This document shows, piece after piece, positions 5,430 to 43,835 of a stretch of DNA of 47,591 nt. Location: the UHGV virus genome UHGV-1376410, one strand, 5' to 3'. The notes under the pieces were generated by a model. It searched no databases, had not been told where the DNA came from, and saw only the letters and a list, made by a program, of their open reading frames with translations. Both the position numbers and the translations under genes were made by a program. The DNA is from a virus. The stretch's first letter is position 1. The number at the start of each line of letters is the position of its first letter.

Positions 5430-5456
5430 AAAAAGCCCCTTACGGGGCTTCTTTCA
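5427..5456. terminator. Rho-independent terminator (bidirectional)
   Basis: AAGCCCC-TTAC-GGGGCTT hairpin flanked by an A-run and a T-rich tail. Confidence 0.7.
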
Positions 5457-6120
5457 TTATCTCATTCATAAGTTCTGGTGAATATTTAAGCCACTCCGTT
5501 GCGCCGTTAAAGCCTTTAAAACCACTGGATTCGTATTTCTTATGATAATAATTTTCAATTTTACGAGCCTTAACTCCATCTGTTTTTATTTTATGTATGA
5601 GATCAAAATCAAATGGAGTGACTATCTTCAAGTGCCTGACCCTATTTTTTATATCCTTTGTAACGCCAACTTTTATCGAGCCCTCTCCCATCAAGAAGTA
5701 CACAAAAGAAACTCTGTTTCTATCAAATCCCCTAACTGCGCAAGATGGGCATCCTTTTCCAGATATGTGCGCGGATGGAGTCTGCTTGAAATCACCATGC
5801 TTCATGCATGTTATTGTCACAGGCGTGTGGTTATTTTTATATTTAACATTATTATAACCATATTTATCCCCATGGATAGAAATTGCCTTGCTGACAAATC
5901 CAGTGGAGTTCATTTTCTTCTTTCCTGAACACATGGAACAGCCAAATCCAGCAAGGTGACTATAAGCCCTTTGCATAAACTCACCGTGGTATCGGCATGT
6001 TATAGATACTTTGTCATGAATTTTGTTAAATTTTACAAGATTGTAGTCATACTTGTTGCCGTGAACATCTTTGGCTCTAGAAATGAATTCTTCAATGGTG
6101 ATCTTTGCTGGCATAAACAA
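5440..6120 (-). CDS. free-standing homing endonuclease-like protein (tandem Zn-ribbon repeats + T5orf172/GIY-YIG-like domain)
   Basis: Two about-55-aa repeats (HG.KYDY...ITC..HG.F.Q....H..G.GC..C); C-terminal VYFLMGEGSIKVGVTKDIKNRVRHL region; opposite orientation inside the tail operon. Confidence 0.65.
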   Translation of the reverse strand: MFMPAKITIEEFISRAKDVHGNKYDYNLVKFNKIHDKVSITCRYHGEFMQRAYSHLAGFGCSMCSGKKKMNSTGFVSKAISIHGDKYGYNNVKYKNNHTPVTITCMKHGDFKQTPSAHISGKGCPSCAVRGFDRNRVSFVYFLMGEGSIKVGVTKDIKNRVRHLKIVTPFDFDLIHKIKTDGVKARKIENYYHKKYESSGFKGFNGATEWLKYSPELMNEIMKEAP

Positions 6121-12560: not shown

Positions 12561-13064
12561 TCAAAACGGAATATCATCATCAAAATCCATCGTCGGCTCG
12601 TTTACCGGTGGTTTTTGTGTATTTGATGGTTGCTGCGGTTTACCCCACCCTGATTGCTGATTACTTCCTGACTGTTGCCGCTGCTGTGATTGTTGGTTTC
12701 CATTATCACTTGATTTACCACCAATCATTTGCATAACGCCGTTCATAGGCTGCAAGACGATTTCAGTAGTGTATTTTTCAACACCGCTTTGATCTGTCCA
12801 TTTTCGAGTGCGTAATTTACCTTCTACATACACATGAGAGCCTTTGCGCAGGTGTTCTCCAGCTACCTCTGCCAGCTTTCCGAAGATAACCACGCGATGC
12901 CATTCAGTTTGCTCTTTCTTTTCACCTGTGGCCTTGTCATTCCACTGTTCTGATGTTGCCAGAGACAGATTGCACACAGCGCCGCCAGATGGCATATATT
13001 TAACTTCCGGGTCTTGGCCGAGTGTGCCCAAAATGATTACTTTGTTGATTCCGCGAGATGCCAT
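12561..13064 (-). CDS. ssb: single-stranded DNA-binding protein
   Basis: OB-fold N-terminus ([10 protein letters not shown]...), Gln/Gly-rich linker, C-terminal DDDIPF tail. Confidence 0.9.
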
Positions 13065-13073
13065 AATTTACCC

Positions 13074-13736
13074 TTAAAAGTTTTCGATGTTCTGTTGAGA
13101 TGTTGATGGCTTCTCTTCGTTTGCAGATGACGCAGGCGCATCTGCTTTCTGGAGTTTGGCCGGGTTAAAATCACTGCCGCCAGCAATGAATTTCGCTTTC
13201 ATTTCCTGGTATGCGCCGACGATTACGCGAGTGGCGGCGTCATCACCACGAAATGATTTGTATTCTTCACCATAAATGGCAGTAAGCTCATCCATGTTTG
13301 CTGCTGAACGAATGAGAGAAGCTGCATCTTTAGGAGACTTGCGCGCCGCATTGCCATCGTCATCGGCCTGGGCAATACCAAACATCGAGGCGATAGAATA
13401 ACGCCGAGCATACGTCATTGCAGATCCATAACCCTGAGCATCTTTCTTGGCAACCGGCATTGGCATGACTGAAGACATGTATTCACCAGACTCATGCATA
13501 ATTGTTGTTTCCAGCTTCAAAACATCAACCGTATCGCTCTCAATGGCGTTCTGGATGATGATAAGACCGTTGGCCTCAAGCGCTGGCCTGATGGCATTCA
13601 GGAATGACTCAAGGTTAGCATAGTTGCTTTTAAGGTGCGGGTTTTGCGCGTTCTTTTTAGCGCTGCTACTCATTACCTTGCGCGCCTCTACAAGAGCCTT
13701 AATCAGGTTTGCTTTCTGTTCTGAAAATTTCATCAC
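13074..13736 (-). CDS. erf: Erf-family single-strand annealing protein
   Basis: NPHLKSNYANLESF and MTYARRYSIASMFGI blocks match the P22 Erf family. Confidence 0.8.
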   Translation of the reverse strand: MMKFSEQKANLIKALVEARKVMSSSAKKNAQNPHLKSNYANLESFLNAIRPALEANGLIIIQNAIESDTVDVLKLETTIMHESGEYMSSVMPMPVAKKDAQGYGSAMTYARRYSIASMFGIAQADDDGNAARKSPKDAASLIRSAANMDELTAIYGEEYKSFRGDDAATRVIVGAYQEMKAKFIAGGSDFNPAKLQKADAPASSANEEKPSTSQQNIENF

Positions 13737-13756
13737 TTCACCTCATTTAATATAAA

Positions 13757-14701
13757 TTACATGTTAAACTGCTTCTTGAACCATTCCGGCGTTTCCATTT
13801 CGATGACCGGATTACCCATTGAGTAGCTAGGCCATGAGTTGGCCTTTTTGCACGCCTTATAGATTTCCATCGCGCTACGCAGCTGAATGCGACCAATGCG
13901 TAACTGCTCATCCGTCAGGCGAATCAACGCAGGGATGAATGGCGATTTCTTCTCCTGCACCAGAAGGTTTACCGAGCGAGGCGCATGCCCATAAGCCTCG
14001 ACAAACATATCGTGCTGCATTGTCATCTTCATAAAGTACCCGAGCCGCGCTGCATGGCGGAAAAACTCATCAGGCTTGGCGCTAACCGCTGTTTTGTAGT
14101 CAATAATGTCGCCACCGCGAGTAAGGCAGTCAAAGCGTACTTTTGATGGCTCGCCAAGCAACTGACCGAGAATTGATACCTCAGAGTAAGCGCCAGAAAG
14201 CAGGCTGCTGTAATAGCTGTTTGCATGGATTACGGCACGCATCTGCATGATGGCGTCGTAGTCATCACCTTCCAGCAAAATTCTGCCTTTCGCATTGAGT
14301 TCAGCAAACAGGCGCTCTTCATCATAGATTCTAACTGGCTCTCCAGTTGAGCGGATGATTTTAATCACCTCAGCCTTTGTCTTGCCAGAAAGCCCCTTAA
14401 TGCCGCGCTCTTTTGCCCATGAGTTCATGTCGCTCACAGTAACAAGCAGTTCTGCGCCGAAATCCTCTTTCGTCGGCATGCGGGCATATTCTGCCTCGAA
14501 GCGCTCAGGCTCAAGAAGCGCTGTATGGCTACCTGTGCCGAAGACAAGAGCCTTTGATTGCTCATCCTCTTCATCTTTGTAGTGCCAAGCTGCGGGGCAT
14601 CTGTCATATATGTTCCACAAGCCAGAGCCGTTTATGTGCTCGGTGTCTGCGTGGTAAGACTCATTGCTGAGTTCATTGTTGAAATAGACTTTCATCATCA
14701 C
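13757..14701 (-). CDS. PD-(D/E)XK-type exonuclease (recombination partner of Erf)
   Basis: GGDIIDYKT D..D.K nuclease motif; position next to Erf and SSB. Confidence 0.55.
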   Translation of the reverse strand: MMMKVYFNNELSNESYHADTEHINGSGLWNIYDRCPAAWHYKDEEDEQSKALVFGTGSHTALLEPERFEAEYARMPTKEDFGAELLVTVSDMNSWAKERGIKGLSGKTKAEVIKIIRSTGEPVRIYDEERLFAELNAKGRILLEGDDYDAIMQMRAVIHANSYYSSLLSGAYSEVSILGQLLGEPSKVRFDCLTRGGDIIDYKTAVSAKPDEFFRHAARLGYFMKMTMQHDMFVEAYGHAPRSVNLLVQEKKSPFIPALIRLTDEQLRIGRIQLRSAMEIYKACKKANSWPSYSMGNPVIEMETPEWFKKQFNM

Positions 14702-15324
14702 TCTCCGTGGTTACAGAATTCTTTATGCATCTTTTCTCTAAACTTCATGACAGCAACTCTTGCTTTATCAATATCATGAAATAATCCAATGTGGTATTTA
14801 ATACCATTAACCGTACATCTGGCATGCCATTTTTTGCATTGTTTGTTCCAGTAAACACCTTTCACTCCAGATGTATTATTTTTTTGCTTTTTACGATTAA
14901 ACTGATTCTGTTCATTGCTTGCTATTCTTAAGTTATCAATCCTGTTGTCATCTCTAATGCCATTAATGTGATCAATATTATCTTCTGGCCAATAACCATA
15001 ACAAATCAACCACGCGAGTATATGAGCATAATACCTATTATTATTTATGCTTATTTCTATGTAACCGTTATCTTTTTTGCAGCCCGCCAAATCTCCATTG
15101 TTTACGCAACCAACAGTCTTGTTCCATGCAAACAAACCAGTTACCCGATTGTAAGTTAAGTTATCTAAAACAACATTACGAGGTATTCTTTTTCTTCCAC
15201 CTATGGTGTTTGACCCTGCATTTCCCTGAGCAAAATCTTGCTTTTGCAGTTCCGATAAACTTATTTCCGCAAACCTCGCACTTCTTAACGGTGATAGCCA
15301 TTTCTTAACCTCTATTGTAATCAT
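14698..15324 (-). CDS. HNH homing endonuclease with AP2-like domain
   Basis: IDHINGIRDDNRIDNLR motif plus GVKGVYW...KW AP2 block. Confidence 0.8.
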   Translation of the reverse strand: MITIEVKKWLSPLRSARFAEISLSELQKQDFAQGNAGSNTIGGRKRIPRNVVLDNLTYNRVTGLFAWNKTVGCVNNGDLAGCKKDNGYIEISINNNRYYAHILAWLICYGYWPEDNIDHINGIRDDNRIDNLRIASNEQNQFNRKKQKNNTSGVKGVYWNKQCKKWHARCTVNGIKYHIGLFHDIDKARVAVMKFREKMHKEFCNHGE

Positions 15325-17790: not shown

Positions 17791-18684
17791 ATGCGATACG
17801 ACTGGAAGGATATAGAGCCTTTAATGGTAGGCAACTGGGAGGCCGCGCTGCTATCAATAGTGAATATTGACAGGAAGGTTTTTAATGGAAAGCATCAGCC
17901 ATGCCCTCATTGCATGGGTAAGGACAGGTTTAGGTGGGATAACAACTTCGAAACAAAAGGCGACGGCGGCGCCATCTGCAACCAGTGCGGAAACGGGAGC
18001 GGCATCACCTGGCTAATGAAGCTTTCAGGAATGACGTTTCCAGAGTCAATGGAGGCACTTGCCGGATTTCTGAACATGCACCCACGCGAAAAACTTGAGG
18101 CGATTAGAAAGCAACTTCCGAAGGTCAACCATGCTTCTGACTACCTGACAGAGACAGAAGTGGCGGCCATCATGGAAAAAGCAGGAGACGACACCATAAC
18201 CGGTAAAACTGGTGAACTGGTGGCGATACCGCTCTATATGGCTGGAACCATGACGCCATGTAATGTGGCTTTTCTGGCAGACGATGAAAGCGTGTCATTT
18301 CGCGCGGGTTTTAGCCATGAGTACACTCGCGGAAGACTTACGCGAGGTGCAGTTACACCCATCGGCGATAAGACTGAATGGACATACCTTGTTGCGGATT
18401 ACTTCGATGCCTGGCGAGCGCACCGGCTTACTGGCGCACATGTCTGGTGTTGCTGGTCGCCGGAAAACATGTGGGAAGTTGCGCGCAATGTGAGCGATGA
18501 GCAGCGCACTAAACTACGCTGTATCATTAATAATAATTTCGATGCGGTATGCGCCGCCGAGAATGCAGGTCTTCCGATACTGATTACTGATGATGGTCAG
18601 GATATCCGTTACAGCAGTGCCATCAGAAAAAGGCTGTATAAACCAGAAGAGCTATTTGAAGCACTAAAAAACAAACCCTCCTGA
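17791..18684 (+). CDS. DNA primase (N-terminal zinc ribbon + Toprim-like region)
   Basis: CPHC...CNQCG zinc finger; divergent from the helicase. Confidence 0.6.
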   Translation: MRYDWKDIEPLMVGNWEAALLSIVNIDRKVFNGKHQPCPHCMGKDRFRWDNNFETKGDGGAICNQCGNGSGITWLMKLSGMTFPESMEALAGFLNMHPREKLEAIRKQLPKVNHASDYLTETEVAAIMEKAGDDTITGKTGELVAIPLYMAGTMTPCNVAFLADDESVSFRAGFSHEYTRGRLTRGAVTPIGDKTEWTYLVADYFDAWRAHRLTGAHVWCCWSPENMWEVARNVSDEQRTKLRCIINNNFDAVCAAENAGLPILITDDGQDIRYSSAIRKRLYKPEELFEALKNKPS

Positions 18685-18700: not shown

Positions 18701-19054
18701 CTCAAGATTGTACTTTTTGACGGCAGCATCCATAGCCTTGCAGCAGTGCCTTATTGCTCTCATTTTTGTGTTTGATTTGCCACACGCATGTATCTGGTGA
18801 GCACCGTCATGGCGATAAATAAAATCAGTAGCGATGGCTCTCCAGTCATTATCGTGAGACGTAACTCCGCGCCTGAAGCAAAGAAAATAATGACCATTAA
18901 AGCATTCCTGAGTAAGATCCATTACCTCAGAATGAAATACGGACGCATCAAATAAACACTGGTCTGCCGCGCCTTGTAACCCGAACCACATGCCATCATG
19001 AGTGCCTGACATGGCATAATAAACTGCGGCAGTAACGCGAGTATTAACTTTCAT
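18698..19054 (-). CDS. hypothetical protein, Cys/His-rich
   Basis: ORF, ATGA-type overlap with the upstream gene. Confidence 0.4.
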   Translation of the reverse strand: MKVNTRVTAAVYYAMSGTHDGMWFGLQGAADQCLFDASVFHSEVMDLTQECFNGHYFLCFRRGVTSHDNDWRAIATDFIYRHDGAHQIHACGKSNTKMRAIRHCCKAMDAAVKKYNLE

Positions 19055-20706
19055 TTCAGACCTCTCATAAATTTCATCCTGTTAACGGCGGCTGAAAGTA
19101 TGTTTCTCACCGAGGCATTCATTCGCAGTCCAGACCATGACCCATCGTCCCTGAAGACGATTTTTGACCCTCCATTAATAGCAGAAGCCTCAATGTCGAT
19201 AGGTGAGTGTCTGTTTTCTGTAATGGAAACCAGAACCTCAGAAATGAACCTGTCAGGCGTTACCTGTAGATGATTTGAGTTTGCCGCCTTGATGATTGTC
19301 TCAATTCGACCACGGCACAATCCGCTTTTCAGTACGGAAGTGTAAGGCTTATTAATGAATTTTTTCCCGGCCATCACCTTTCTCATTTTGGCAATGATGT
19401 TTTCCCACTCATCCTCTTCAAGGCCACTGAATGCAACGTCACCTTCTACATAATCACGAAGCGAGCGAAGGTGGTTTATCACTGTCATATAAGCCCATTC
19501 AAGATGCCTGTCGCACAAAACTGGCGTCATTCCATTGCGACTCGAAAGGTCTGCAAATGCGCATATCGAGGCAAGGTCTACGATCATCTGCCCGGCGCGC
19601 GGGACAACATCGCCAATTACACCATCTACATTTCCGAGACATTTCTCAAGGTGGCACGTAAGCTCATAACGCCTGTCGTTTACCTTTTCACTTTCAAATT
19701 CAACGCGGGTTATTGAGCGGAGGATTCTTTGCTTCCATTCATTTACTATTCTCCTGTTTACCTCACCTGCAGGCTGCTCTCTTTTTAGTAATGGCATTTC
19801 CTCGTCATCGCCATGACCAAGGATGAACAACGTCCTGCCCATGCCACCATCCTTCTGCCATGACCTGACCGCATCAATACCCTGAACTGGCGTTACAGTG
19901 ATGAGAGGAATAAATCTTGCGTTCTCAATACCTCCATCACGAGTGCATAATTCATGCTCAGCCATCACTTTTTTCAGGTTCCTGCCCACACTGTGATCCA
20001 TCTGAGACAATCTTTTATAGTCAATCATCCCATCCTGCGCACCGCCAATACGCGGAACAATCCAGCCTTCCGCCATAGCAACACTAACTATCGTCTTGGG
20101 GTTCATGGCTTTAGCCATATTCTCCTCAATATCCCTGATTATTGTCCTGGTTGGAACCCACCCACCTTCATCAGTCAAACTGCGATACCACGGCGCAGTT
20201 CCGCCAAGATATGCGCTTCTAGGGTCATTCCATGAGTCAATATGCTGCTTATCATCGTTTACGACGTAAAGCAGAGAGCCATCACCTTCAATCATGCTGG
20301 TCTGTATCTGCTTTAATGATGTAGCAGTAGTGGTGCAAAGGCGGTCGCTTATCATCAGGGCTTCAGCATATTGCTTTATAAAATTAACTGGCGCCTGCTT
20401 GCCAGCTCCAGACCTCGCCACGAGGAAAATCCCAGTAGAGCACTTACTTCCAGTAGGGCCAATAATAAATCTACCAGCCATTATCTGAGCAAGGCCAAGC
20501 GCGCCAACAAGTCGATATTTTTCTCCATCATCACGGCGCTCGAAATTTTTCTCTATCTCCTCTATGAACTCCCCAAGTGAACCGGGTGGAATCTTGTATT
20601 TTTCCCTGAACTCAGGAATGTCAGCCTCATCGAGCGGGTCTATTGATGAATCCGCTTTCCCGACGGATTTTTTCATGGCGATAATTTCGTAAGTATTCAT
20701 CAGCAA
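19051..20706 (-). CDS. large hypothetical protein of the replication module (551 aa)
   Basis: Long ORF with gene-like composition and translational coupling to its neighbours; no motif I can name with confidence. Confidence 0.5.
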   Translation of the reverse strand: MLMNTYEIIAMKKSVGKADSSIDPLDEADIPEFREKYKIPPGSLGEFIEEIEKNFERRDDGEKYRLVGALGLAQIMAGRFIIGPTGSKCSTGIFLVARSGAGKQAPVNFIKQYAEALMISDRLCTTTATSLKQIQTSMIEGDGSLLYVVNDDKQHIDSWNDPRSAYLGGTAPWYRSLTDEGGWVPTRTIIRDIEENMAKAMNPKTIVSVAMAEGWIVPRIGGAQDGMIDYKRLSQMDHSVGRNLKKVMAEHELCTRDGGIENARFIPLITVTPVQGIDAVRSWQKDGGMGRTLFILGHGDDEEMPLLKREQPAGEVNRRIVNEWKQRILRSITRVEFESEKVNDRRYELTCHLEKCLGNVDGVIGDVVPRAGQMIVDLASICAFADLSSRNGMTPVLCDRHLEWAYMTVINHLRSLRDYVEGDVAFSGLEEDEWENIIAKMRKVMAGKKFINKPYTSVLKSGLCRGRIETIIKAANSNHLQVTPDRFISEVLVSITENRHSPIDIEASAINGGSKIVFRDDGSWSGLRMNASVRNILSAAVNRMKFMRGLK

Positions 20707-23826: not shown

Positions 23827-23910
23827 CTGATTTATAATAATCAATGCGGCTAGGGGGCACCCGAAAAGCGACTCATCACCGCCTGCCGCATTCACTTCAA
23901 TGATGCCCTG

Positions 23911-26445
23911 ATGAGGAATCTATATATGGCACGCAAAAGACTCTCAGCACCAGCAATTGAAAAACTCGAAGAGATTATTGGCGATGGCGTGATTGATGCG
24001 CCTGAATCTGCGGTGTTCGGTGTTGTTAATACAGATAAGCAGATTGTTCGCAAACTAAAAATGACGCAAAGCGGAGTTGATGACGTTAGCGACTCTGATA
24101 TTGGCGTTGATCACCTGATACCAGAAAAGCTGGAAAAGCTACTTTACCCCAAGCGTAATAAGATTGTGTTTGGCGGGCGCGGATGCTTAGCCATCGGCAC
24201 GATGGTGAGGATGTTTGATGGTAGCCTAAAACGCGTAGAGGATATCGTTGTTGGCGATAAGGTTATGGGTCCAGACAGTAAACCACGAAATGTTTTAAAC
24301 ATCTGTCGGGGGTTTGATGACATGTATACGGTTCATCAAAAATATGCTGATGACTACACTGTCAACTCAAGTCACATACTGTCATTACGAAAGATTCCAT
24401 CTGCTATCAGTGACGAGACAAAAACACCGGATGGTAAAAGAATTTATCGTTATTACCCGAATGAACCTGAAATACTGAATATTGGTGTTTCAGAATATTT
24501 GTCGCGCGCAACTTCCAAAAAGTTCCGCCATGTCTTTAAAGGGTGGCGAACAGGATGGGATTTTAATGACCAAAGCGTCCCAGTTGACCCGTACTTTCTT
24601 GGTTTATGGTTAGGTGATGGTTCATCTCGTGGTGTTGAAGTGTGCACGCCTGATCCAGAGATAGTTGACTACATTCACAACGTGGCAAGCAAATACGGGA
24701 TGCAGGTAAAGGTTCGCGACGATGATAGATGCCCTGCCTATGCGATAACTAATGGTCGAGCTGCTGGCATGGGGAAGAACACCAACCCGTTACTAACTAA
24801 AATGCAGCAGCTTGGGGTGATTAATAATAAACACATACCTGACTGCTATATCAAAAACAGCAGAGAGGTAAGACTTCAGATTCTGGCTGGGCTATTGGAT
24901 ACTGATTCGCATTATGACCAGAAAAAGAAAAGCTATTCTTTCACATCAATAAATAAAGAAATGGCCTTCTCTTTGATGGATGTGGCAAGATCGCTTGGCT
25001 TCAAGTCAAGCATAATCAAAAAGACTGATGTCACCTTTGAATATAAAGGTGAGAAAAGAATATACGAAAAGGACGTATGGGAGGTGTTCGTTAGTGGTGA
25101 CCTTCATACAATCCCATGCCGAGTAAAAAGGAAGATAGCAGAGAAAACCAAGTCAACCCGTGGAAAGATGACTGAGGTGTCATTGTCTTATGTCGGGCAT
25201 GGTGAATACGCTGGGTTCACTATTGATGGCGATCATCTTTTCCTGCTTGCTGATGGCACGGTTACACACAACAGCGGAAAAACAAGGACAGTAACAACAA
25301 TACTTACGGAGCGTGCACGCTTTAAGCCTGACAGGATAGCTTGTTTTCGTGAGATTCAGCAGTCTATTGAGGATAGTTCATATCAGGAGCTGAAAGACGA
25401 GATTGACAGGAAGGGCGAGACAAAAGAGTTTCGCGTCATCAACAACGAAATAACACACAAGGTAACGAAAGCAAAGTTCCGCTTTAAAGGCCTGTATCGC
25501 AACCAGACGACCGTAAAAGGCTTCGCTGGCATTACAGTAGCTTGGGTCGAGGAGGCGGAAAACGTCAGCCAGACAAGCTGGGAAATCCTCACCCCAACAG
25601 TCCGCGCTGAAGGGTCAGAGATATGGGTGACTTTCAACCCAAATAAAGAGCATGACCCGACGTGGAAAATATGGGTTGAGCCTTTTTATAATAAATTGCG
25701 CGAAAATGGCGGCATCTATGAGGATGATGAAAACCTGATTATGGAGTGTAATTACTCAGACAATCCGTGGTTCTGGGATACTCCGCTCCCAAGCCAAATG
25801 CAACGCATGAAAGAGACCGACTTCGACCGCTATCAATGGGTGTGGGGTGGGCGCTTTAATAAGCGTAATGATGAGCAGGTATTTGGCGGTAAGTGGCGCG
25901 TTGCTGATTTCGAGGTTAAGCCGGAATGGCATGGGCCTTACTTTGGCATCGACTTTGGATTCTCGCAGGACGCAACGGCGATGGTTGAGGTTTACATTGA
26001 GAAACTTCCTGATGACCGCCGCAACCTTTACGTCGCGCGCGAATACGGCCGTGTAGGCCTTGAGATTACCGACACACCTACAGCGATGGAGCAATCATTC
26101 CCACTCTCCAGGAAGGCAAGATGGTATGGGGACTGCTCTCGGCCAGAAACAATCAGTCACATCAAACGCGCAGGATTTGATATCCATCCATGCAATAAGT
26201 GGCCCGGGAGCGTGGAGGATGGTGTAACCTGGCTCAGGGGTTGCGACAGCATCATCATTCATGACCGCTGCACACAGACTCAGGAAGAGTTCACTATGTA
26301 CAGTTACAAGGTGGACAAGCTGACGGGTAACGTGCTCACAAATATTGTGGATGCGTGGAACCACTTCATTGACGCAATCAGATATGCATGCAACGATCAC
26401 ATCGTACAGCGTGGCTCTGGATGGATTAGAAGGAGCAGGAGATAA
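23911..26445 (+). CDS. terminase large subunit, intein-containing precursor
   Basis: Exteins reconstitute the Walker A VFGGRG|SGKT; C-terminal RNase-H-like nuclease region; 844-aa precursor, 481-aa mature. Confidence 0.9.
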   Translation: MRNLYMARKRLSAPAIEKLEEIIGDGVIDAPESAVFGVVNTDKQIVRKLKMTQSGVDDVSDSDIGVDHLIPEKLEKLLYPKRNKIVFGGRGCLAIGTMVRMFDGSLKRVEDIVVGDKVMGPDSKPRNVLNICRGFDDMYTVHQKYADDYTVNSSHILSLRKIPSAISDETKTPDGKRIYRYYPNEPEILNIGVSEYLSRATSKKFRHVFKGWRTGWDFNDQSVPVDPYFLGLWLGDGSSRGVEVCTPDPEIVDYIHNVASKYGMQVKVRDDDRCPAYAITNGRAAGMGKNTNPLLTKMQQLGVINNKHIPDCYIKNSREVRLQILAGLLDTDSHYDQKKKSYSFTSINKEMAFSLMDVARSLGFKSSIIKKTDVTFEYKGEKRIYEKDVWEVFVSGDLHTIPCRVKRKIAEKTKSTRGKMTEVSLSYVGHGEYAGFTIDGDHLFLLADGTVTHNSGKTRTVTTILTERARFKPDRIACFREIQQSIEDSSYQELKDEIDRKGETKEFRVINNEITHKVTKAKFRFKGLYRNQTTVKGFAGITVAWVEEAENVSQTSWEILTPTVRAEGSEIWVTFNPNKEHDPTWKIWVEPFYNKLRENGGIYEDDENLIMECNYSDNPWFWDTPLPSQMQRMKETDFDRYQWVWGGRFNKRNDEQVFGGKWRVADFEVKPEWHGPYFGIDFGFSQDATAMVEVYIEKLPDDRRNLYVAREYGRVGLEITDTPTAMEQSFPLSRKARWYGDCSRPETISHIKRAGFDIHPCNKWPGSVEDGVTWLRGCDSIIIHDRCTQTQEEFTMYSYKVDKLTGNVLTNIVDAWNHFIDAIRYACNDHIVQRGSGWIRRSRR
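24184..25272 (+). mobile_element. intein with LAGLIDADG homing endonuclease, inserted in the TerL P-loop
   Basis: Starts Cys (CLAIGTMV), ends ...VTHN followed by Ser+1; LAGLIDADG blocks FLGLWLGDGSS and LAGLLDTDSH; in frame, 363 aa. Confidence 0.85.
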
Positions 26446-34407: not shown

Positions 34408-34430
34408 ATCTTAATGCGAGTGATGTGGAT

Positions 34431-34946
34431 ATGAACTTTATTGACTTGTTTGTTTACGAAAACGGCAAGCTTTACTGGAAGGTTAAGCCGTCAAACAACG
34501 TAAAGGCTGGCGCAAGGATTGGGTGCCTGGAGCCAACGACAGGTTATCGAAAGGTAAAAGTAAAATACACCCAGACATATGAGCACAGGATTGTTTGGGA
34601 GCTATTTAACGGACCAATACCGGAAGACATGGAAATTGATCACATCAACCACATCAGAGATGACAACCGAATAGAGAATCTCAGGCTTGTTAACAGGAGA
34701 GAAAACACGAGAAACAGTTCAATCAGGAGCGACAACACCAGTGGTGTTGTTGGTGTTTGTTTTGATAAAAAGCGCGGCAAGTGGTACGCGCAAATAGTCT
34801 TAAACGGAACAAGGCTGCACTTAGGTCGCTTTTCAGAAAAGAGCGAAGCAATAAAGACCAGACTTGAAGCTGAAATGAAATATGGTTTCCATGAAAACCA
34901 TGGAATCAATAGGCCAAAAAGAATGATAAAAGGTGGTGTGGAATGA
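34431..34946 (+). CDS. HNH homing endonuclease with AP2-like domain
   Basis: IDHINHIRDDNRIENLR and GVVGVCF..KW blocks; listed ORF starts at GTG 34425. Confidence 0.8.
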   Translation: MNFIDLFVYENGKLYWKVKPSNNVKAGARIGCLEPTTGYRKVKVKYTQTYEHRIVWELFNGPIPEDMEIDHINHIRDDNRIENLRLVNRRENTRNSSIRSDNTSGVVGVCFDKKRGKWYAQIVLNGTRLHLGRFSEKSEAIKTRLEAEMKYGFHENHGINRPKRMIKGGVE

Positions 34947-41430: not shown

Positions 41431-41685
41431 TTACTTATGGTCGCGAAGTTGAATGAGATTATCAATCAGCCGCTGGATTGCGGCATTATCTTTAAATGCG
41501 ATGTAAATTTCAGACTCATCAGTATCATTAGTTTTATCGCCAGGAATGCCGCGATTTATGGTATTCGCAAAAGCCATTAACTTTTCTCCATTGCAATAGC
41601 CAAATTTAATGCCAACGTAACCATCGCCAAGACGGGCAACTTTTGAGCCATCTTTCTGAGTAAAAACACCATTCTTTTTCATCAC
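41431..41685 (-). CDS. hypothetical protein
   Basis: Start overlaps the stop of the DnaN-like gene. Confidence 0.45.
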   Translation of the reverse strand: MMKKNGVFTQKDGSKVARLGDGYVGIKFGYCNGEKLMAFANTINRGIPGDKTNDTDESEIYIAFKDNAAIQRLIDNLIQLRDHK

Positions 41686-42221
41686 TAAATCCTCATTGGC
41701 ATAACGATAACTTTTGCAGTCTCGCCAGTAGGCGCACTGATGTTTGCGACGGCGGCGCTGGTGTTGCCATTCAACTCAAATAGCACCGCTTCAAATTTCG
41801 GGTTAAACAACTTCGCCAGCTTCTCAACATCTTCCAGGTATTTGGCATTAAAGCCAATCTGTTCCGCTGGTGCGGTCTGCTTAGGAATGACGCGATCAAT
41901 ATCAGGGAATCGGCCATTAATCTCAGAGCAGATACCTGCGCCTACCATGATTTCATGCTCGTCATGGTAAGTAACAATACCTGTTTTGGTGTCCAGTAGC
42001 GCATGCGCATAACGCTTAGTTGGCGACTTGCTTACCGATACGATGACGTTACTTTTTATCTTGTTTTCGTGCTTACTGGCAATCATGGCGCGATGACCGT
42101 CAGTAGCGGCAACTCGACCATCAGGCATAAAGCAAATGCCATTCAGGTAGTAACGCACATCCTGTTTGGCCTGGAACATCAACGCGCCTTCAAGAAGTAA
42201 CTTGCTGATTTTTAATTTCAT
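41685..42221 (-). CDS. truncated beta sliding clamp (DnaN domain II + partial domain III) homologue
   Basis: AKQDVRYYLNG...ATDGHR, INGRFPDIDRVIPKQ, IGFNAKYLEDV and C-terminal VIVMPMRI align colinearly with E. coli DnaN residues about 140-366 with a roughly 60-aa gap; true start MKLKISK at 42221 (the listed ORF extends further upstream). Confidence 0.7.
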   Translation of the reverse strand: MKLKISKLLLEGALMFQAKQDVRYYLNGICFMPDGRVAATDGHRAMIASKHENKIKSNVIVSVSKSPTKRYAHALLDTKTGIVTYHDEHEIMVGAGICSEINGRFPDIDRVIPKQTAPAEQIGFNAKYLEDVEKLAKLFNPKFEAVLFELNGNTSAAVANISAPTGETAKVIVMPMRI

Positions 42222-42394
42222 CACTTCACCTTTATCATGTGTTGTTTTGCAACCTTCAGGCATTCATCGAAAATCTTGCCATTCTTTTCACTCTGGTTGC
42301 TCCTGTAGTGGGTAATTGCGGCCTCTATAGCCGCGTTGTCGATGCCTGGCAGTTTTTCGCGCAGGTTTTTCTCTATGAATTGTTCGGGGTTCAT
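42221..42394 (-). CDS. hypothetical 57-aa protein
   Basis: AAGGT SD; TGATG overlap with the DnaN-like start. Confidence 0.35.
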   Translation of the reverse strand: MNPEQFIEKNLREKLPGIDNAAIEAAITHYRSNQSEKNGKIFDECLKVAKQHMIKVK

Positions 42395-42530
42395 TATTTA
42401 ACCTTTTTAGAATCATGGTCGCAGCCAATCATTTGATGAAAAACCCACGGAGCAAATCGACCAAGACCTATTCCAGTGCGCTCGCTTATGCTCCATACGG
42501 CAGCCCACAGCATGCGCCAGATGTTAATCA

Positions 42531-43346
42531 TTACAGCTTCTCCAGAATAGCCAGAACTTCACCCAACTCAGCGGAAGGAAGGCGCAAAAATTCTTCTGTC
42601 TCCTGTGCCACATGACCCTCAGCAACCACCATATGATCTGCTTCTTTCAGCAACTGAATCAGGCGGTCAATCGGCTTAACTTTTTTGGCCTTGAGCGTTT
42701 TAGCCGTCACCTTATCTTTGCCCTGCGCTTTCGCTTCCTCAACGGCGGCATCAATAACGTTAACGGCATCATCGCCATGCTCACGTGCGACCGCAACGGC
42801 GTTGGCATAGCTGATTTGGCCTGCATTGATACGCTGCTTGATGGCATCAGGTACATCACCAAGTGACAGGTGCATTTGCACATCAGACACAGAGCGCCCG
42901 ACCTTCTTGGCGATTTCTTCATTCGTCCACCCGAACCCTTTGAGGCGCACATAAGCCTTTGCACGCTCAAGCGGGTCGAGTTGCTTGCCCTGACTTGAAG
43001 ACACCATGAAGGCGATTTTATCCGCCTCATCGCCGGTGAAGTCTTTGCACTCAATTCGCGCAATTGGCACGCCGCGCTCAATGGCACGCAGTGCTCCAAG
43101 GTAACGATGCTGGCCGTCAAGAATCTTGATGCGCTTTCCGTCGGCATCAGGAATAACAGTTAACGCCGGGATTGGCTGTCCTGATTCCCAACACTGCGCG
43201 AAGTATTCAACGTGCTGCTCATCGGCTTCGCGGATGTTGTACCCCGGCTCAAGGTAAAGCTGGTCGACAGGGACCTGATAACCTTTGTTGACCACGATTC
43301 CGCCGCGAGTTTCTTTGTCTGAGTAAATTTTTCCGAGAGATGTCAT
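42531..43346 (-). CDS. ParB-like nuclease domain protein
   Basis: ILDGQHRY ParB/Srx motif; likely start MTSLGK at 43346 with a GAGGGGAAG SD (the listed ORF extends to 43382). Confidence 0.7.
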   Translation of the reverse strand: MTSLGKIYSDKETRGGIVVNKGYQVPVDQLYLEPGYNIREADEQHVEYFAQCWESGQPIPALTVIPDADGKRIKILDGQHRYLGALRAIERGVPIARIECKDFTGDEADKIAFMVSSSQGKQLDPLERAKAYVRLKGFGWTNEEIAKKVGRSVSDVQMHLSLGDVPDAIKQRINAGQISYANAVAVAREHGDDAVNVIDAAVEEAKAQGKDKVTAKTLKAKKVKPIDRLIQLLKEADHMVVAEGHVAQETEEFLRLPSAELGEVLAILEKL

Positions 43347-43466
43347 CTTCCCCTCACTTTGATAAACAGATTGCACTGGCAATGGCGAATCCGATAACGA
43401 TTAACGCCAGCTTGATTTTGAACTTATCCCACGCCTTCAGGTCTTCTTTTCGTATTTCGTGGTGGA

Positions 43467-43784
43467 TCATTTGGATTCTCCGAGTGCTTTCGCGATTGCG
43501 GCACGCTCTGACAGCAATGCTGGGTTATCAATTGACGCCTCATACTGATATGCTTCAACCATATTTTGCAATGCTTCCAGCAACTCCGGCGCGGCAGCGA
43601 TGAGTTGCGCATTTGCCATTGCCACCGGACCGCGATGCTCATCATTATCAAACCAACTTGCGGATGAGCAAACATTCCCAACAGTTCCGCGCACCGCGTT
43701 AATGTCATAAAAATAACCGTTATCTTCGACTTCCCACGACCCCGGCGTACCTTTGAATTCATTCATCTTCATCACCTCTAACAT
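43467..43784 (-). CDS. hypothetical protein (first gene of the embedded leftward operon)
   Basis: ORF directly downstream of the promoter at 43807-43835. Confidence 0.45.
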   Translation of the reverse strand: MLEVMKMNEFKGTPGSWEVEDNGYFYDINAVRGTVGNVCSSASWFDNDEHRGPVAMANAQLIAAAPELLEALQNMVEAYQYEASIDNPALLSERAAIAKALGESK

Positions 43785-43806: not shown

Positions 43807-43835
43807 ACTATAGCGACACCCTCAATCTACGTCAA
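43807..43835 (-). promoter_or_regulatory. Consensus sigma70 promoter TTGACG-N17-TATAGT
   Basis: Nearly identical to the promoter at 21404-21432, including the TAGATTGAG spacer start. Confidence 0.6.

Follow-up and report, generated by a model that had tools for sequence, protein, structure and literature searches.

In bacteria, replication and repair converge on the beta clamp (DnaN), their central docking hub and an antibiotic target. Short phage homologues of this DNA polymerase III (Pol III) beta subunit were reported in 2011; they were considered likely horizontal acquisitions, dispensable for replication, and were omitted from the summary of that census (Kazlauskas and Venclovas, NAR 39:8291, PMC3201878). 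In the literature, short phage clamps were found only in this census and in genome annotations, and no functional or structural study of them was found. Bcep781 gp15 is noted in its record as a 'DNA Pol III b subunit fragment', and many GenBank orthologues are labeled 'DNA polymerase III beta subunit' or 'beta clamp domain protein'. Here we analyze such a protein encoded by the virus genome UHGV-1376410, whose whole stretch of 47,591 nucleotides is referred to as the window. The gene lies on the minus strand at 41685..42221 and encodes 178 amino acids (aa; MKLKISK...VIVMPMRI) followed by a TAG stop codon. This mini-clamp belongs to the same family as the earlier reported short homologues (PHROG 3007), with which it shares size class (~170-210 aa), phage origin, and the restriction to the C-terminal part of beta; it aligns with Bcep781 gp15 over its whole length. 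As an object it is not new, since it belongs to a family already noticed and widely annotated, and the statement of a first-pass annotation, made from the sequence alone, that no annotated function was known for such a protein has to be withdrawn. What is added here is that only half of domain III is kept, that the second inner helix of domain II is lost, that the partner-binding pocket is conserved while the dimer interface is not, and that the family is basic and very large. The best-supported statement on its nature is that of a ring-less, single-pocket docking module, apparently under strong selection to keep the pocket for clamp-binding motifs (CBMs).

Homology to the beta clamp is far above chance. 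A phmmer search of PDB sequences matched the mini-clamp to enterobacterial beta clamps (E = 2.4e-12), and a profile of 97 family members aligned by hhalign with E. coli DnaN at 99.5% probability (E = 1.6e-22). AlphaFold2, run with the 97-member alignment, returned a model with a predicted local distance difference test score (pLDDT) of 97.0 and a predicted template modeling score (pTM) of 0.90. This model has the DnaN/beta-clamp fold, and beta clamps made up all of the top 50 Foldseek matches in the PDB. The profile and structure comparisons proposed with the first-pass annotation thus gave clear matches and not an unrelated fold. Single-sequence comparisons were weaker. Pfam matched the central (E = 1.2e-3) and the C-terminal (E = 0.023) DnaN domains with scores of 19.6 (beta_2) and 14.9 (beta_3), each below the cut-off of 27, and the score for TIGR00663 (42.9 bits) stayed below the curated DnaN threshold of 137.65. 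Overall identity between the mini-clamp and E. coli beta is ~34%.

The PHROG 3007 profile matched with E = 2e-58, with residues 1-178 of the mini-clamp placed on profile positions 1-186 of 190. This PHROG, as well as many RefSeq records such as NC_071143.1, NC_071151.1, NC_042037.1, and NC_004333.2, carries the label 'RusA-like Holliday junction resolvase'. A resolvase function is suggested by the label only. No RusA family was matched in Pfam up to E = 10, where a Cache domain appeared weakly besides both DnaN domains; the fold is that of a beta clamp, and Bcep781 has a separate, genuine RusA (gp22). We give this function next to no credence. The label is a systematic mis-annotation of a beta-clamp-fold protein, and the RusA-like entries in RefSeq and PHROG-derived records are wrong and due for correction.

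The hhalign alignment covers DnaN residues 137-251 and then jumps straight to 313-366. The E. coli DnaN sequence used for numbering was verified against residue-numbered PDB alignments and the hhalign output. Absent are domain I and the N-terminal half of domain III (E. coli ~252-312, 61 residues). The first-pass annotation had described a truncated homologue without domain I and without about 60 residues of domain III, which was borne out; which part of domain III was missing had been left unspecified, and it is the N-terminal half. In agreement with this half-deletion, the Pfam beta_3 match spans only profile positions 69-121 of 121. Unseen in the earlier work was a second loss. In the model, strands 59-63 and 73-77 are bridged by a loop of nine residues without a helix (SKSPTKRYA, aa 64-72, 42006..42032, minus strand), with pLDDT values of 97-98 in this part, so that the second inner helix of domain II (alpha2') is predicted to be lost as well. 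Both deletions are general: in all 97 family members, the alpha2' site measures 3-11 residues, and 5-15 residues separate the connector between domains II and III from the IGFN strand.

Each clamp domain consists of two beta-alpha-beta-beta-beta motifs, and at a domain boundary the first motif of one domain is paired with the second motif of the next. By this topology, what is left is the entire sheet across the II/III boundary, still backed by its two helices, and the second sheet of domain II without a helix. The three-domain architecture of ~366 aa is therefore not present in this protein of 178 aa, which has two long helices where its three motifs would need three. Based on the secondary structure of the model and on the alignments, the domain-II-like part extends over aa 1-101 (E. 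coli beta ~129-237; 41919..42221, minus strand) and contains one inner helix (aa 7-16) and seven strands. It is followed by the II-III connector NGRFPDIDRVIPKQTA (aa 102-117, from the alignments; 41871..41918, minus strand) and by the C-terminal half of domain III (aa 118-178, beta 313-366; 41688..41870, minus strand). The latter, delimited by hhalign and Pfam DNA_pol3_beta_3, is modeled as the strand IGFN, a helix (126-139), three strands, and the terminal VIVMPMRI. All sequence blocks that had been quoted as shared with DnaN were found, namely QDVRYYLNG (aa 20-28), ATDGHR (39-44), INGRFPDIDRVIPK (101-114), IGFNAKYLEDV (122-132), and VIVMPMRI (171-178).

We took the definition of the partner-binding pocket (18 residues) from a 2024 review, in which subsite I comprises R152, L155, T172, G174, H175, R176, L177, P242, R246, V247, V360, and M362, and subsite II comprises H175, N320, Y323, V344, M362, P363, M364, and R365 (PMC11139829). 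All 18 residues map onto the retained segments, 15 of them are identical to E. coli beta, and both subsites are represented at the sequence level, consistent with the earlier claim that the cleft between domains II and III is kept. Eleven columns reach a conservation of at least 90% among the 97 family members, which are ~30% identical to the window protein, and nine of these columns are pocket residues (hypergeometric P = 6e-9). The remaining two, D21 and Y25, are neighbors in the same loop. Mean conservation is 0.74 at pocket positions and 0.37 elsewhere, and the pocket thus represents the most conserved positions of the family.

In the mini-clamp, the pocket residues are distributed over four blocks. 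The equivalent of the beta 146-157 loop, recognized by conservation (QAKQDVRYYLNG, aa 17-28; 42138..42173, minus strand), carries R23 (=R152) and L26 (=L155), with 97% R and 91% L in the family; K19 of the same loop sits at the H148 position (75% K/R). The conserved ATDGHR block (aa 39-44; 42090..42107, minus strand) provides T40, G42, H43, and R44 (=T172, G174, H175, and R176), of which T, G, and H are 92-99% conserved. P106, R110, and V111 (=P242, R246, and V247) lie in the connector, and N125, Y128, I172, M174, P175, M176, and R177 in the C-terminal half-domain. In 63 of the 97 members the C-terminus falls one residue past the conserved R, as in beta.

While the pocket is conserved, the elements for ring formation are gone. 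The dimer interface of beta involves I78, F106, I272, and L273, together with R103, E298, and E304 (PMC11139829). In the hhalign mapping all of these fall in deleted segments. The first-pass annotation held that the domain III dimer interface was kept, but its residues I272, L273, E298, and E304 are all within the missing ~252-312, which leaves a canonical domain I-III heterodimer with host beta structurally baseless. Its other expectation, i.e. that the fragment cannot close a canonical ring, was correct: with domain I, the first half of domain III, and the interface residues missing, a canonical head-to-tail ring would be impossible for a protein with this sequence. This also bears on the idea of a poison subunit that heterodimerizes with host beta through the dimer interface and thereby yields open, non-functional clamps. 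The retained parts are highly similar to enterobacterial beta, and other phages inhibit the clamp or its loader (e.g. the Gp168-beta-clamp complex, 7evp). The canonical interface residues of both sides are deleted, however, and a phage without its own polymerase needs the host clamp; we regard this idea as distinctly improbable. General poisoning of the host replisome is likewise unlikely, as this phage lacks its own polymerase and the gene is dispensable in close relatives.

A genuine sliding clamp might be built in a non-canonical way, with C-terminal half-domains that pair across a two-fold axis forming a pseudo-domain III and two such dimers closing a 12-motif ring. Clamp domains have an internal pseudo-two-fold symmetry, the truncation leaves an unpaired half-domain, and three beta-alpha-beta-beta-beta motifs in each of four chains would give the 12 motifs of the clamp ring. 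Against this, the missing alpha2' would leave eight channel helices and not 12, the pockets would face both sides of the ring, and loader-dependent rings do not typically have a high isoelectric point (pI). A clamp-loader gene is absent. Natural tandem fusions were not found either in a Rosetta-stone search among longer matches, where, apart from a WD40 false positive, only the beta_2 domain was seen. Such a ring appears rather improbable.

Phage records with a mini-clamp homologue numbered 249. A profile search returned 2,015 clusters at 90% identity, and an exhaustive search of the representatives clustered at 50% identity returned 2,091 at E ≤ 1e-3. More than 140 of the 50% representatives, with 170-210 aa, outranked the first full-length DnaN. 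Searches with the single sequence and with a six-lineage profile listed only near-identical relatives, and the diversity of the family was drawn from the 50%-clustered representatives. In BFVD, similar short clamp folds occur in phages of Pantoea, Serratia, Burkholderia, Rhodococcus, Gordonia, Bacillus, Xanthomonas, and E. coli. Replication or recombination modules are a frequent location of the gene. In temperate prophages within plasmids it belongs to the early accessory operon between repressor and integrase, and in Kagunavirus and Bcep781 it is the lone opposite-strand gene among head genes. As Kagunavirus fFiEco03 and Bcep781 have their own family-A polymerase (PolA), the mini-clamp was rejected as a general marker of polymerase-less phages (i.e. 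as an adaptor for host Pol III). PADLOC defense and anti-defense profiles gave no matches. As a separate observation, a WD40-repeat protein of 1004 aa (P0259) was matched with E = 2e-11 in 10 stretches; this is a repeat-driven false positive and calls for caution in automated annotation of the family.

Two close relatives, MK54 and KP591P1, have lost the gene. In both, the homologues of the flanking 57-aa and 83-aa open reading frames (ORFs) are adjacent, and all that is retained of the mini-clamp gene is its last 21 nt (GTTATGCCAATGAGGATTTAG, encoding VMPMRI and the stop codon). This remnant indicates that the gene was ancestral and then deleted, and that it is accessory and dispensable. An essential role in the replisome was rejected on account of this clean deletion. 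The truncation, the loss in some relatives, and the view of such homologues as dispensable acquisitions (PMC3201878) might also suggest that the mini-clamp itself is a non-functional remnant of a captured host dnaN. Yet ~2,000 clusters at 90% identity and >140 at 50% share its length and both deletions, surface pocket residues are 90-99% conserved at ~30% overall identity, and the ORF is intact, translationally coupled, and predicted with very high confidence to fold. Both internal deletions in every member and >140 clusters above full-length DnaN point to a selected design, not to decay. The conservation pattern effectively refutes the remnant explanation, to which we attach a very small probability. 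Like the non-canonical ring, the poison subunit, and the resolvase, it is much less likely than the two readings discussed in the following.

The first of these is that the mini-clamp acts as a stand-alone partner-docking module that would show one complete CBM pocket to host proteins normally docking on beta. Candidate partners would be the clamp-loader subunit delta, Hda, the polymerases Pol II, IV, and V, MutS and MutL, Pol I, ligase, and the Pol III subunits alpha and epsilon. Binding would draw these proteins off the host clamp, and the role of the mini-clamp would be accessory rather than that of a core replisome component. This reading builds on the conservation of the pocket, the loss of ring elements, the independence of the source of polymerase, the dispensability of the gene, and the preference of delta for monomeric beta, which it binds ~50 times more tightly than the ring (PMC11139829). 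We infer the binding of CBMs by the pocket, the host identity of the partners, and the competition with beta from these features. A strict CBM of the QL[SD]LF type was not found in the window, and elsewhere only scattered, non-conserved matches to this short motif occurred; the PolA proteins of fFiEco03 and Bcep781 also gave no match to it, with the same caveat of a short motif. That no phage protein with a consistent CBM was found, within the limits of such a short motif, points to host partners. We therefore tentatively favor a non-ring mimic of the pocket that would divert host partners from beta as an accessory, host-modulating factor, and would give it close to an even chance.

Several observations weigh against this preference. 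At the positions of V344 and L177 the residues are not those of E. coli, and at the position of R176 conservation within the family is poor. If delta or Pol III were sequestered without discrimination, a phage that relies on host Pol III would be harmed, so that some selectivity must be assumed. Finally, a purely soluble decoy does not account for the basic residues gained and conserved on the exposed faces of the two retained inner helices and on the 148-152 loop, which suit a protein tethered to DNA better.

The basic character is a feature of the family. The window protein has a pI of 9.0 and a net charge of +3.9; across the family the median is 8.35, with just 6% of the members below 6. 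For comparison, the pI is 5.25 for E. coli beta and 6.06 for the equivalent beta segment. Three positions that are non-basic in E. coli beta are K or R in at least 50% of the members, i.e. aa 11 (E140), 19 (H148), and 134 (N329). K/R is further conserved at aa 142, 70, and 137, the last of which corresponds to K332 and is basic in E. coli already. These conserved residues are placed on exposed positions of the two retained inner helices and of the 148-152 loop. An elevated pI has been described as a marker of non-ring clamp homologues that bind DNA directly, and was used to predict them (Kazlauskas and Venclovas, PMC3201878).

The charge pattern leads to the main rival, a DNA-bound clip or adaptor resembling UL42/UL44. 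Its basic concave face would sit on DNA without the help of a loader, and its pocket would tether a CBM-bearing enzyme. The host Pol III core, Pol I, ligase, or a repair factor would then be recruited to phage DNA rather than sequestered. The basic residues described above, on exposed faces, speak for it, as does the frequent association of the gene with replication or recombination modules. The monomeric form of beta can still bind DNA, but it is unable to support processive synthesis by Pol III (PMC11139829). Further arguments against such a role are the dispensability of the gene in close relatives, the deletion of one DNA-facing helix, the availability of host beta and its clamp loader in any case, and the lack of a CBM in the PolA of relatives. 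The adaptor accounts for the charge pattern better than a pocket mimic does, and is nevertheless unlikely in our view. A related proposal joins both features: a ring-less, loader-independent 'clip' that would hold DNA by its new basic face and use the beta pocket to capture or re-route host clamp-binding proteins during infection. We consider this possible, at somewhat less than an even chance.

A large phage family has retained only the pocket, conserves it above all other parts of the protein, and has lost every ring-forming element, which suggests that phages exploit the pocket itself. If it binds host CBMs, mini-clamps would be natural competitive ligand traps or adaptors for the clamp interactome, which could explain how some phages tune host replication or repair, and would offer a small, monomer-sized, well-folding scaffold for biophysics and inhibitor work. 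If the 'clip' proposal is true, delta, Hda, translesion polymerases, MutS/L, Pol I, and ligase would be re-routed, and interference with replisome and repair would be widespread and so far uncharacterized. The protein would then also serve as a natural minimal pocket module for studies of clamp ligands and for inhibitor screening.

The mini-clamp gene is part of a tightly packed minus-strand operon with the order 102-aa ORF, ParB/KorB-like gene, 45-aa ORF, 57-aa ORF, mini-clamp, and 83-aa ORF, which sits between structural-gene blocks of the opposite strand. The mini-clamp gene runs from its ATG at 42221-42219 to the TAG at 41687-41685. Upstream, the 57-aa ORF (42221..42394; PHROG 4439) ends in a TGA that overlaps this ATG (ATGA). 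This overlap argues for translational coupling and for the start at 42221, which is preferred over an in-frame ATG at 42263 that is used in many database entries and gives rise to 192-aa versions. The last operon gene, the 83-aa ORF (41431..41682), had no family match. Further upstream are the 45-aa ORF (42394..42531; PHROG 20955, function unknown) and the ParB/KorB-like DNA-binding protein (42531..43382; PHROG 1033, E = 1.8e-87), the true start of which is likely M13 at 43346. This protein matched Pfam HTH_ParB and KorB, with weak matches to TIGR00180 and DGQHR and an ILDGQHRY motif. The operon with a ParB-like protein, as first annotated, is thus real, whereas its designation as a nuclease is not supported by any of these matches. 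In cluster O mycobacteriophages, a beta-clamp gene and a ParB-like gene also share a region transcribed leftward (PMC4351075). The pairing might be due to chance, since relatives without the mini-clamp retain ParB.

The first gene of the operon encodes 102 aa (43467..43775; PHROG 1273, function unknown). A 38-aa ORF with a hydrophobic tail (MIHHEIRKEDLKAWDKFKIKLALIVIGFAI...; ~43353-43472, minus strand) starts at an ATGA overlap with the stop codon of this gene; in VLCpiS13c its place is occupied by a 117-bp gene. Upstream of the operon, a sigma70-like promoter candidate (TTGACG-17-TATAGT; 43807..43835, minus strand) matches the consensus at 10 of 12 positions. The driving promoter had been called a consensus promoter; near-consensus is the more accurate description, and promoter-like sites are no more numerous in the region than in shuffled sequence.

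The window corresponds to a complete-length (~47.6 kb) siphophage. Its closest relatives are Klebsiella phages (VLCpiS13c, ZCKP8, and DP01) and Roufvirus, and its proteins are ~70% identical to those of Skatevirus-type phages of Salmonella and E. coli. The assignment to T1-like phages is thus mistaken, as its nearest neighbors are found among Klebsiella siphophages and in Roufvirus/Skatevirus rather than in Drexlerviridae. The replication and recombination module includes SSB, Erf, a RecE-like exonuclease, a superfamily 2 (SF2) helicase, and a primase; a DNA polymerase gene was not found in this phage. In comparison to VLCpiS13c (23830-25673), the closest relative with annotation, the recombination module is swapped: here, Erf, the RecE-like exonuclease, and SSB are encoded (12561-14701, minus strand), whereas the counterpart encodes Sak4-like and Gam-like proteins and SSB, along with a single 773-aa primase. 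A 297-aa protein of the primase N-terminal type (primase-helicase Zn-ribbon; 17791-18684, plus strand) is flanked by minus-strand genes. The adjacent ORF of 551 aa (19051-20706, minus strand) has only a weak PHROG 'primase' match (E = 1.9e-14) and none in Pfam or NCBIfam. The replicative helicase and primase of this phage are poorly defined. With 844 aa, the large terminase ORF (23911-26445, plus strand) is longer than its 476-aa counterpart in the closest annotated relative. It contains an intein with a Hom_end-associated Hint domain (aa 92-178) and a LAGLIDADG homing endonuclease (aa 309-375) ahead of Terminase_3/Terminase_3C. Three HNH or homing-type endonuclease genes were also detected (5440-6120 and 14698-15324 on the minus strand, 34425-34946 on the plus strand), two of them in PHROG 99. 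Together with the terminase intein, they indicate heavy colonization by selfish elements.

Among known systems, bacterial beta (E. coli 1MMI/2POL) is a ring-forming, acidic protein of 366 aa; the mini-clamp has 178 aa, is basic, and is without domain I, the first half of domain III, alpha2', and the interface residues. The laboratory monomer beta I272A/L273A is likewise a non-ring form with an intact pocket. Unlike the mini-clamp, it is full-length with three domains and not natural, and it fails as a processivity factor. The herpesvirus proteins UL42, UL44, and BMRF1 consist of two full domains, and their cognate viral polymerase docks via its C-terminus. The mini-clamp, by contrast, has a bacterial-type pocket and occurs here in a phage without a polymerase, and in relatives with a PolA that shows no CBM. 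Phage proteins aimed at the clamp system, such as Twort Gp168, which binds beta (PDB 7evp), and N4 gp8, which binds delta, offer a possible functional analogy in their interference with the hub of host clamp and clamp loader. Both Gp168 and N4 gp8 are unrelated to the mini-clamp in sequence and fold, and bind the host clamp or its loader without imitating the docking site.

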